Assembly (NCBI GenBank): GCA_977862235.1
Contig: OZ374559.1
Coordinates: 124,001-188,000 of the forward strand
DNA: 64,000 bases
Direction: 5' to 3'
Source of the DNA: Dudresnaya verticillata
Taxonomy: Eukaryota
The position numbers and the translations under genes are program-made. Below are positions 40,545-43,476 of this stretch, piece by piece (the stretch's first letter is position 1; each line of letters opens with the position of its first letter). Under the pieces are notes generated by a model. The model made no database searches. It saw only the letters and a program-made list of their open reading frames with translations, and was not told the origin of the DNA.

Positions 40545-43476
40545 ATGCCACCGAAAAAGAAGAAGGGAGTGGCGGTGAGGTCTGTATCCAACACAGGACA
40601 GACCTCAGCAGACGTAAGAGCGCCTGTATCATCTGGGAATGATAGAGTTCTGTTCGGAGATGTCGTTAATGGAGCTACGCACAAGCGAGTCGACCCTCGT
40701 TCATGTGTCCCGTTGACCTACGTCCGCCCGATCTGCAGATCGGGCGTCGAGCGATTGAAGCGCATTTTCCGGGGGACCGACCGGTACAGTTCAGGGACAT
40801 TGAAGTCTCCCGTGGAAGGAGCTCCGGACTCTATCGGTTACGTGGCTGGTAGTGATATGCCTGTCGTTGTGCCATTGACAGGGGCATTGAGAAGCCGTGT
40901 GTCCGATTATTTCAGGTCACAAACAAGGAAGGACTGTAGCGTCGTTCCGAGAAAGAAGTTCAGGAAATTGTGAAATCGAGGGGGAAATGGTACGGAGTAG
41001 TTGATGGAATGCACAGATTGGCAGCTATTCGTGAGCTGCTTGAAGAAAATTACAACCAGTGGAAAACCTTTGACTGGTCTGTGCTGGAGCTGAACCCGCG
41101 GACCGACCTGGTGGTCCTGAAGCAATTCGCTAGACATCAGAATCGTAAGCACGAGGCAAACTGCTTCGTGGAAACTACCCTGTATAACACATTGAAGGGT
41201 CTGAAAGATGAGGCTGATCGCCTTCAAGCAGAGGGAAATGGTATCAAGCCGACAGCAAAAGCGGTTGCGTCCGCTTACGATGGGGGTGTTCATATGCACG
41301 AGAACACAGTGAAGCAGACAGCGCAAGTAGCTCTCCGACTAAGTCATCGTGTCATCGATGCGATAGGGGAGATAATGGGGGAGGAAATACCGCAGCTTGC
41401 ATTGGCTTCACGAAATGGAAGAACTGCTAAATCAGTAGCAGACGATGCCCTGATGTCGCCGATGGACTGCCGGGTTTTCCGGAAGTTTATTACTCTGAAC
41501 TCACTGAAGGCTGCCACAGAGTTCATGCGCGCGGGCCAAATGAGTGGCGTGGTACATGATGAGGGTGTGGAAGTCCAGGTCTCGACACTCTACCGCATTC
41601 GAGAAGTATGCAGGAGGAACGGGTTCAGGCCCGTGCTTTACGGGGTCACCAAATCAGAGTTCGGGAAGGCTAAAGATGCGCTAGCAGAGGTTCGCAAATT
41701 CGAAGGCCTTCGTGAATCTGAGGACTGGCCGGGTCCCATGGACACGATGCGGACAAATCTTCTGCGATCCCAAAAGTTTGATGGCGATATCATGCTTAAC
41801 AGGGGCAACGACACATTGATTTTGCAGTGCATTCTGGATAAGTACAAGGACTGTTGCCCGGAAGAGGCCCCCCTGAAGATCCACAAGTACAATTCTGTTA
41901 GAGAAAAGAATAGAAAGGAGGGCGACGAGGAGATGGCTTTGGATCAGGAGGATTTGAATGCAATTGCGACGGGAGTGCAAGATTCGGGGTATGTGAATTC
42001 CGATCAGGTAACGACCATTCGAAACACGGACCATCCCCGAGATGGACAGGAAGAACATGAACACGTATCCTCTCCTTCTGTCAATCTAGAGCCGTTACCT
42101 TGCAGTGGGGACCTTGGTTCGACCGGAGACCGTGTCTGTGACGATGCGGAAGATGTGCAGGGGTCGGCTGTAAAATCTGCAGCGACAGTGAGCACGGAAA
42201 AGTCAGAGAGGCTGGCTGTACGTGGGGACAAGAATACATCTGACCACAATTTGGAAGCCGACATCCTGAAGTCGTTCAGAATAACCTGCCATCAGATGCG
42301 GTGGCAGATATTCGACAAGAATGTTCGAGAGGGTGTTGGGGACCTATACGACACAGTTCTTACCGACACACCGTATGGAACGCCTGCATCACAGTCCGGT
42401 GCAGGGAAACAGTACGACAACTATATGAGTGATTCTGAAATATCTGATCTTGCAGAAATGTGCAGGCAATCCGTTGTGCCGGGAGGGTGGGTGTTCATGT
42501 TCGTGTCCTACCAGACATTCGAACCTATAAGGCAGGCTCTTCTCAAGGCCGGATTCATTTGCCCAACTTACGCCTTTTCGATTGCAAAGGATACACACAC
42601 GGTGCAGGAGAGGCGAGGAAATGACTGTCCCCAAAATGGCCACGAAATTGCCGTCATGGGAAGAGCCCCAGGACAACACCCAACGGATTTAAAGTGGATC
42701 TTCGAAGCCCGTACCAATTTGTGAAGGCCTCCGAAAAGAGAAAGTTTGCATGCATGTCCCAAATTCCTGTTTCTAAGAAGAAGCTTCTTAAACCGGGTAC
42801 CAAATCTCCGGTGCTTACGGAGGAGAAGAATGTTCAGCTGTTAGTGGAATTGTTGACGACCTTCTGCCCTGAGGGAGGTGCCATTCTGGACATGTATGTC
42901 GGAACGATGACAACTGCAATTGCAGCTATACAGACTGGTAGGAAGTGCACCTGCATAGAGCAGAGTCTACAGACGTATAGGCTTGCAGTTGCACGCTTGA
43001 AAAGGATAGCAGGTGATCATCGCAAATTGTCGGATGGGAGGGAAGGAACACCACTGTGTGATAGAGAGAAACAGGCCCTGGGAGAAGACCAGGGAGCGGC
43101 TGTGGAAATTCCGCAACAGAAACGGCTCGGGAATGAGGCGGAGAAGGATTCGGATTGTATTGCAGGAGGCGATGCTGTTGTTCTGTACGTCGGGAAGAAC
43201 GTTGTTGGGAAGGCAAAAGTCCAATTCGGGGCAACTTCTGAAGAAAAGGTTCGCAAGCAGATTTATCTGAAGCCCCTGTCGGAATACGAGAAGGCAGGAC
43301 AGGAACTCATTGCGGTTTACGCCTTCGAATGTGATTCATCCTTTACCACGTTTGCGTATCCGTATAACTTTCATGTTCCAAACGGCCGCCCTGCCACGAG
43401 CCTAGGTGGGCTAGACGGATTCTTTGCCTGGGATCTCCATGCGATGGAAGCCCACGCGCGATGCGAGCAGAAATGA
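40545..43476 (+). pseudogene. ParB/Srx-like domain fused to a permuted (beta-class) N6-adenine/N4-cytosine DNA methyltransferase; two frameshifts
   Basis: NLS-like MPPKKKK; ParB-like VRP...PVVV...YGVVDGMHRLAA; motif IV-like DTVLTDTPYG; VVPGGWVFMF; EEKNVQLL...CPEGGAILDMYVGTMTTAIAAIQTGRKCTCIEQ (SAM-binding motif I placed after motif IV). Frameshifts near 40930 and 42682. Confidence 0.85.

Follow-up and report, generated by a model that had tools for sequence, protein, structure and literature searches.

A probably decayed ParB-like/amino-methyltransferase gene inside a 24-kb inverted-repeat element of Dudresnaya verticillata

The window analyzed here, a 64,000-nucleotide stretch of Dudresnaya verticillata DNA (contig OZ374559.1, positions 124,001 to 188,000), contains an element of ≈24 kb whose terminal inverted repeats (TIRs) enclose both a broken methylase gene and an uninterrupted DUF7869 ORF (Table 1). 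The gene had been described from the letters alone as transposon cargo, and its position in a TIR element together with an intact DUF7869 transposase ORF agrees with that description. The element has split the gag-like ORF of an LTR retrotransposon, whose reverse transcriptase, RNase H and integrase lie at 61163-63481. When the junctions are read in register, they give a 2-bp duplication, TT or AA. The insertion may be old enough for the ends of the element to have eroded. EnSpm/CACTA elements have CAC termini and target site duplications of 2-3 bp; with a TT duplication, the right end here can be read as CACAG and the left end as CCCGG, while no CACTA family was matched among the element ORFs in Pfam. 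For the LINE that separates the methylase gene from the transposase gene, no target duplication could be resolved. Two other frames in the element, 37969-38877 (−) and 34784-35713 (+), of 302 and 309 codons, had no NCBIfam match and no Pfam match above the cut-off. A weak single WD40 match (E = 9e-4) at 44249-44710 (+) is possibly another captured scrap.

Table 1. Positions of the element, its genes and its target within the window.
Feature	Position	Strand	Remarks
Target: gag-like ORF of LTR retrotransposon, split by the element	33664..34607	+	Retrotransposon resumes after ≈58561
Left terminal inverted repeat	34608..35002 (first base 34605 or 34608)	+	34612-35002 aligns with 58136-58556 of right arm, 83%, 422 columns
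ORF1: basic N-terminus and first half of ParB-like domain	40479/40545..40973	+	52% identity to P0007; fold from P0008 model
ORF2: remaining ParB-like domain, HTH-like/helical region, weakly conserved linker, catalytic half of methyltransferase	40940..42724	+	
ORF3: methyltransferase SAM-binding half and C-terminal domain	42625..43476	+	PF01555, E = 2.2e-8
Shared domain (≈100 aa) at methylase C-terminus	43159..43452	+	Homologue at N-terminus of the element's transposase
Palindrome cluster (two palindromes, two half-sites of GAAAACCTAT)	43973..44254	.	Candidate binding site, 0.5-0.8 kb downstream of methylase
LINE retrotransposon, nested between methylase and transposase genes	44853..49054	−	Exo_endo_phos, RVT_1
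Captured seryl-tRNA synthetase and phospholipase D fragments, with stops	49839..52226	+	PF02403, PF13091, PF00614
DUF7869 ORF, 1150 codons, uninterrupted (putative transposase)	53650..57102	+	PF25273, E = 1e-45; DUF7869 at 55852-56379
Shared domain in transposase	53743-54057	+	Profile match
Subterminal tandem repeat	57508..57704	+	68-bp unit, 2.9 copies
Right terminal inverted repeat	58136..58560 (last base 58560 or 58563)	−	83% to left arm

The three overlapping ORFs of the methylase gene tile in order along the intact 971-aa homologue P0007 (residues 50-143 at 52% identity, 148-707 at 42% and 674-962 at 40%), in line with the preliminary description, which took them for a single gene of ≈975 aa; intact homologues range from 887 to 1015 aa. 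The alignment to P0007 places the frame breaks at ≈40934-40946 and ≈42673-42690. We considered an intron at the first break and rejected it, since the homologues leave no room for one. The nearby 1150-codon transposase ORF and a 1050-codon LINE ORF are uninterrupted, which speaks against widespread indel errors in the assembly. The gene starts with MPPKKKKG, which presumably resembles a nuclear localization signal, and the ParB/Srx-type DGxHR motif claimed for it is present as DGMHR at 41003-41017 in ORF2. Motif IV reads DTPY (42365-42376) and motif I reads DMYVGTMTT (42889-42915). At positions that are invariant among 11 close relatives, the window methylase departs in 15 cases out of 150 (10%), compared to 0-7% when each of those relatives is left out in turn; the transposase departs at 5% of its invariant positions, inside the 0-15% range of its own relatives. 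The methylase also forms a long branch within a clade that has a support of 0.98. With two apparent frameshifts, DTPY in place of DPPY and an altered SAM loop, its sequence indicates that this copy is very likely non-functional, as had been suspected.

No ParBc match was found in Pfam for the window ORFs or for four homologues; the only matches of this kind were to DndB (E = 0.008 and 0.04). The N-terminal half is therefore assigned through a structure model of the homologue P0008. Its N-terminal 427 residues were modeled from 97 sequences with a pLDDT of 88, and the model was compared with 48,161 chains. The top eight matches were all of the ParB/Srx type (Z = 6.0-9.8), including PadC (Z = 9.8, rmsd 2.7, 97 residues aligned), KorB (Z = 8.2) and sulfiredoxin (Z = 7.9), and pNOB8 ParB could be aligned over 215 residues (Z = 9.4, rmsd 4.4). 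Foldseek in the PDB placed Noc, ParB, KorB and PadC among the first 13 matches, with E values from 0.014 to 1.1, and the list returned from a viral structure library was dominated by viral ParB proteins. The ParB-like family phrog_1033 was matched by a distant locus, L056. A ParB/Srx fold is thus well supported as a prediction, and the earlier claim of a ParB-like domain holds at the level of fold and fails at the level of a Pfam sequence match. Residues 225-284 of the model gave isolated, weak matches of the HTH type (Z ≈ 4.3), and a putative HTH following the predicted ParB fold is moderately supported.

The methyltransferase half could be recognized from sequence directly. ORF3 scored 34.8 bits against PF01555 in the Pfam scan (gathering cut-off 26.7), bearing out the N6_N4_Mtase assignment of the preliminary description, while ORF1 and ORF2 matched no Pfam family at E ≤ 0.1. 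The intact homologue P0007 matched profile positions 2-220 with 52.9 bits (E = 6e-14), showing that intact homologues contain the whole domain. A profile of the family found DpnA (6e-20), CcrM (3e-11) and RsrI as its best matches in the PDB, followed by the N4C enzymes PvuII (5e-4) and 8s9m; N4C enzymes and MT-A70 proteins were also among the matches, and the methylase part matched phrog_67 with E = 1e-20. Motif IV precedes motif I, starting at 42365 and 42889, respectively, as had been noted. By its sequence, the C-terminal half is a β-class amino-methyltransferase (PF01555). The available text of PMC8885841 gives DPPY as the motif of N6A methylation in bacteria.

The methylase family comprises 208 clusters at E ≤ 1e-30, and its motifs were counted in 62 non-redundant full-length relatives (71 less nine near-duplicates). 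DPP[Y/F] is present in 23 of these and absent in 39; all nine other members of the clade to which the window methylase belongs keep DPPY. The canonical FxGxG SAM loop is not matched by the window copy, which reads YVGTM, and the second glycine is replaced by L, M or F in 58 of the 62 relatives. This alteration of the second glycine may impair SAM binding. The window copy also has a Val where 58/62 relatives have A, G or S. GxHR occurs in 23 relatives, and the window has GMHR. DPP[Y/F] and GxHR are found together in 16 relatives and are both missing from 32, with seven discordant cases of either kind, in sequences that are not phylogenetically independent; one large clade has neither DPPY nor GxHR. 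That the loss of DPPY tracks that of GxHR hints at coupled functions, although the pattern is confounded by shared ancestry. A DxR motif in the helical region is nearly invariant, with D/E in 62/62 and R in 62/62. The lack of DPP[Y/F] in 39/62 relatives, including the intact ORF beside a transposase at locus L010, implies that much of the family can do without methylation. Searches with the methylase alignment gave no locus in metagenome contigs and no full-length relative in viral contigs.

We read the DUF7869 ORF as a putative DDE transposase because of its conserved acidic motifs and its place between the TIRs. We take the motifs to look Sola1-like, but the duplication at the element's junctions is of 2 bp; no mention of DUF7869 was found in the literature searched. 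The C-terminus of the methylase and the N-terminus of the transposase share a domain. Run against 1326 window ORF pieces, a profile built without the window sequences matched the transposase (E = 6.9e-16); the profile searches are significant, whereas a pairwise BLAST between the two copies was not (E = 0.58). The domain had no Pfam, NCBIfam or PHROG match and no evident sequence match in the PDB. It is present in 3 of 12 transposase homologues and in 23 of 62 methylases, and appears to move between methylase and transposase genes. We also considered an obligate pairing of the two proteins through this domain, an idea weakened by its uneven distribution in six methylase-transposase pairs: both proteins carry it only in the window, the methylase alone in three pairs, the transposase alone in one and neither in one, in a tally for which gene calls may be truncated.

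These six pairs consist of the window and five others. For five of ten close transposase clusters, the transposase and a methylase homologue came from contigs of exactly equal size and the same source, and it is by equal contig size and source, not from the DNA of the contigs, that these five pairs were joined. In a control, jittered sizes compared with 59 lengths gave at most three matches in 200,000 trials. Across the six pairs, both proteins produced an identical unrooted tree, in which two nodes are weak (support 57 and 53), and their distances were correlated (Mantel r = 0.94, reached in 2/720 permutations); the paired methylases and transposases co-diverge at 34-58% identity.

Linkage was also seen directly in DNA. 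From 80 transposase loci, the best 80 of 274, 11 had more than 2 kb of upstream sequence. A ParB-like ORF is present head-to-head with the transposase in six of these 11 (L010, L012, L017, L025, L044 and L056; the ParB calls for the last three are weak, with small-database E values of ≈1e-5 to 1e-7), and a methyltransferase domain in four (L010, L017, L018 and L025). At L005 and L020, the upstream DNA (>2 kb) held no ParB-like or methylase gene. L017 is homologous to the methylase family over 673 columns. The window methylase is on the same strand as the transposase; L010, L012, L017 and L025 have the accessory gene and the transposase on opposite strands. The proposed linkage to the same transposase is confirmed by the head-to-head loci, the five size-matched pairs and the congruent trees: the methylase family is tied to one transposase lineage, and the linkage is conserved. 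L025 encodes an OTU protease fused to ParB-like and methyltransferase (DPPW) domains at 711-4283 (−), head-to-head with a DUF7869 transposase. In L018, a methyltransferase (DLPF) fused to SET lies upstream of a DUF7869 transposase at 2360-5743 (+), an architecture similar to that of PAG2 (see below). The L017 protein, at 1095-5099 (−) on a contig of 34% GC, combines ParB-like and methyltransferase (DPPF) domains with a C-terminus that is SET-like by eye.

In the GAAAACCTAT cluster downstream of the methylase gene, a 10-mer occurs twice in each orientation within 400 bp; no other 400-bp stretch of the 64-kb window shows this pattern, and none of 30 shuffles produced it. The window-wide count of palindromes is a weak signal, with eight compared to 3.3 expected and 2 of 100 shuffles reaching eight. 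Locus-specific palindromes, unlike those of the window, flank the gene in L017, L044 and L056. With a strict repeat test, 4 of the 11 loci with upstream DNA scored (L018, L043, L045 and L056), as did 7 of the 69 others among the best 80 of 274 transposase loci; since the latter also score, the palindromes could be sites for the transposase. In L017, two palindromes lie at 5082-5281, between the ParB-like/methyltransferase gene and the transposase. Long locus-specific palindrome arrays adjoin the ParB-like genes in L056 (1586-1737 and 4244-4269) and L044 (1270-1373), and in L056 the palindrome core is found again in the DNA that separates the ParB-like gene from the transposase. Within the window, both TIRs contain palindromic AAACTTTCGCGAAAGTTT units (34791-34821 and 58345-58378), and their CGCGAAA half-site is also found in the 68-bp subterminal repeat.

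On balance, we favor by a little the view that the window gene is a decayed accessory gene of the transposon, the intact product of which likely binds palindromes in its own element and likely methylates adenine there. We infer every step of this mechanism beyond the identity of the domains. The HTH of the intact protein would probably read the palindrome, and the members that retain DPPY are, with similar confidence, expected to transfer methyl groups to DNA. The mark would rather be 6mA than 4mC, a choice of which we are fairly confident. More tentatively, a putative nucleotide pocket of the ParB fold might gate binding or spreading. Whether the outcome would favor the element, through anti-silencing or control of the transposase promoter, seems to us evenly balanced. 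Many lineages would retain only a DNA-binding role, and the window element would have to rely on protein supplied in trans or manage without it. In a bolder version, which strikes us as quite unlikely, an ancient module of bacterial style would be carried by DUF7869 transposons in diverse eukaryotes: a ParB clamp, gated by a nucleotide, would load at a parS-like palindrome within the element, spread over it and write 6mA. If this bolder version were true, the transposon would have a private epigenetic mark, not written by the 5mC or histone machinery of the host, and the shared domain would couple the writer to the transposase. Self-methylation of a transposon with a mark of bacterial type would be a new means to escape or steer silencing by the host, and it would be unusual for a ParB clamp to act on eukaryotic chromatin.

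The same observations could describe a protein that is mainly a sequence-specific DNA-binding regulator or scaffold, acting as an autorepressor or as a helper in end synapsis, with a methyltransferase that is vestigial or a reader even in DPPY-bearing members. The 39/62 relatives without DPP[Y/F] do keep long open frames, a large clade has lost both DPPY and GxHR while DxR is almost invariant, the SAM loop is altered family-wide, and the domain common to the transposase points to transposition-related work. However, DPPY/F persists over deep branches in 23 members, where it tracks with an intact GxHR, and the distant loci L017 and L025 keep DPPF or DPPW; we consider such a regulator or scaffold unlikely, if still a serious contender. 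The chemistry might also differ, with intact members writing 4mC or methylating RNA rather than making 6mA in DNA. PF01555 takes in N6A as well as N4C enzymes, the PDB matches of the family profile include N4C enzymes and MT-A70 proteins, and the available text of PMC8885841 documents a β-class 4mC writer in a eukaryote. Nevertheless, the motif is DPPY and not SPPY, the best PDB matches are adenine enzymes, and the fused ParB/HTH-like module points to DNA, making this alternative decidedly improbable. Finally, the gene could have been captured from the host or a foreign source as a passive rider, like the seryl-tRNA synthetase and phospholipase D scraps: the element does hold broken host-gene fragments, and its methylase copy is broken, too, and forms a long branch. 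A passenger of this kind would be hard to reconcile with the co-divergence with the transposase at 34-58% identity, the head-to-head linkage on independent contigs and the domain common to the transposase, and we give it almost no weight compared to the self-binding accessory gene.

A similar arrangement has been published for the brown alga Ectocarpus, where Sola1-1_Ec32, a TIR element of 21.5 kb, carries as its second gene a 1104-aa ParB-like protein with a 4mC/6mA methyltransferase, proposed by its authors to bind and modify its own element (PMC12477816, in the text available to us). The literature check called for in the preliminary description thus found both the architecture and the self-marking hypothesis already in print. 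Compared by description, the window likewise has a giant TIR element with a ParB-like/amino-methyltransferase accessory gene, and the same source reports imperfect TIRs and common nested insertions in such giant elements and cites Iyer et al. 2011 for green algal examples. The two differ in that the accessory gene of Sola1-1_Ec32 is on the strand opposite to the transposase and the element has a 4-bp target site duplication and AACCG termini, whereas in the window both genes share a strand and the element has a 2-bp duplication and other termini. Red-algal Plavaka elements carry a PF01555 methylase (PAG2) and a ParB-like protein (PAG3), with inverted-repeat arrays beside the ParB-like gene, and PAG-type genes are reported on Plavaka, Mutator and Zisupton elements (bioRxiv 10.1101/2025.02.11.637652, in the available part). 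PAG2 and PAG3 are distinct genes, the methylase being joined to SET and the ParB-like protein to a 2OG oxygenase, whereas the window has one ParB-methylase protein and a DUF7869 transposase. Neither SET nor Plavaka was matched in Pfam among the element ORFs scanned, and SET was also absent in the homologues scanned; L018, with its methylase-SET fusion beside a DUF7869 transposase, bridges PAG2 and the window architecture.

Fusions of ParB and N6_N4 methyltransferase domains are known from phages according to the available text of PMC12704722 and PMC4738411, with both domains in one protein as in the window family. The phage matches to this family, in contrast, cover the methylase domain only, at 24-28% identity, and none of 69 records covers 80% of the query. 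In the ParB, Noc and KorB clamps, which have parS-type palindromes, a ParB fold is followed by an HTH-like region and there is a GxxR box (GMHR in the window); the model suggests that the window family may have this order of fold and HTH-like region as well, but no ParA was seen among the element ORFs in the Pfam scan. The nucleotide used by ParB-type proteins is, as stated in the accessible text of PMC12704722, not predictable from sequence. The bdelloid N4CMT is a β-class amino-methyltransferase of a eukaryote that acts on transposons; it is host-encoded, carries SPPY, is fused to a chromodomain and serves silencing, in contrast to the transposon-encoded window family with DPPY (PMC8885841, available part). 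By analogy, the window gene would work like the published Ectocarpus, Plavaka and phage cases, and the concept is not new. New here are the domain shared by methylase and transposase, the palindrome cluster and the loss of the catalytic motif in 39/62 relatives. The published idea rests on the annotation of a single genome, while the present family is large and tied to one transposase lineage. Neither an assay of such a protein nor activity or methylome data turned up in the literature searched, and no paper there was a close match for red-algal 6mA. The window copy is unsuited to an assay, which becomes direct with the intact candidates P0007, P0014, P0036 and L017 and the candidate target palindromes named here.

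Elsewhere in the window, 4632-9675 (+) holds a Roc and TIR-domain gene and, in tandem, a partial duplicate that contains a second TIR domain. Repeats of ≈111 bp at 2747-3560 (+) resemble Sel1-like repeats. At 15519-20327, there is a Copia element with 274-bp LTRs that are 99% identical and a broken coding region. A further element at 27776-32137 (−) combines 221-bp direct repeats with an ORF for a reverse transcriptase; it is presumably of the DIRS type, with a C-terminal region that resembles the DIRS methylase-like domain.
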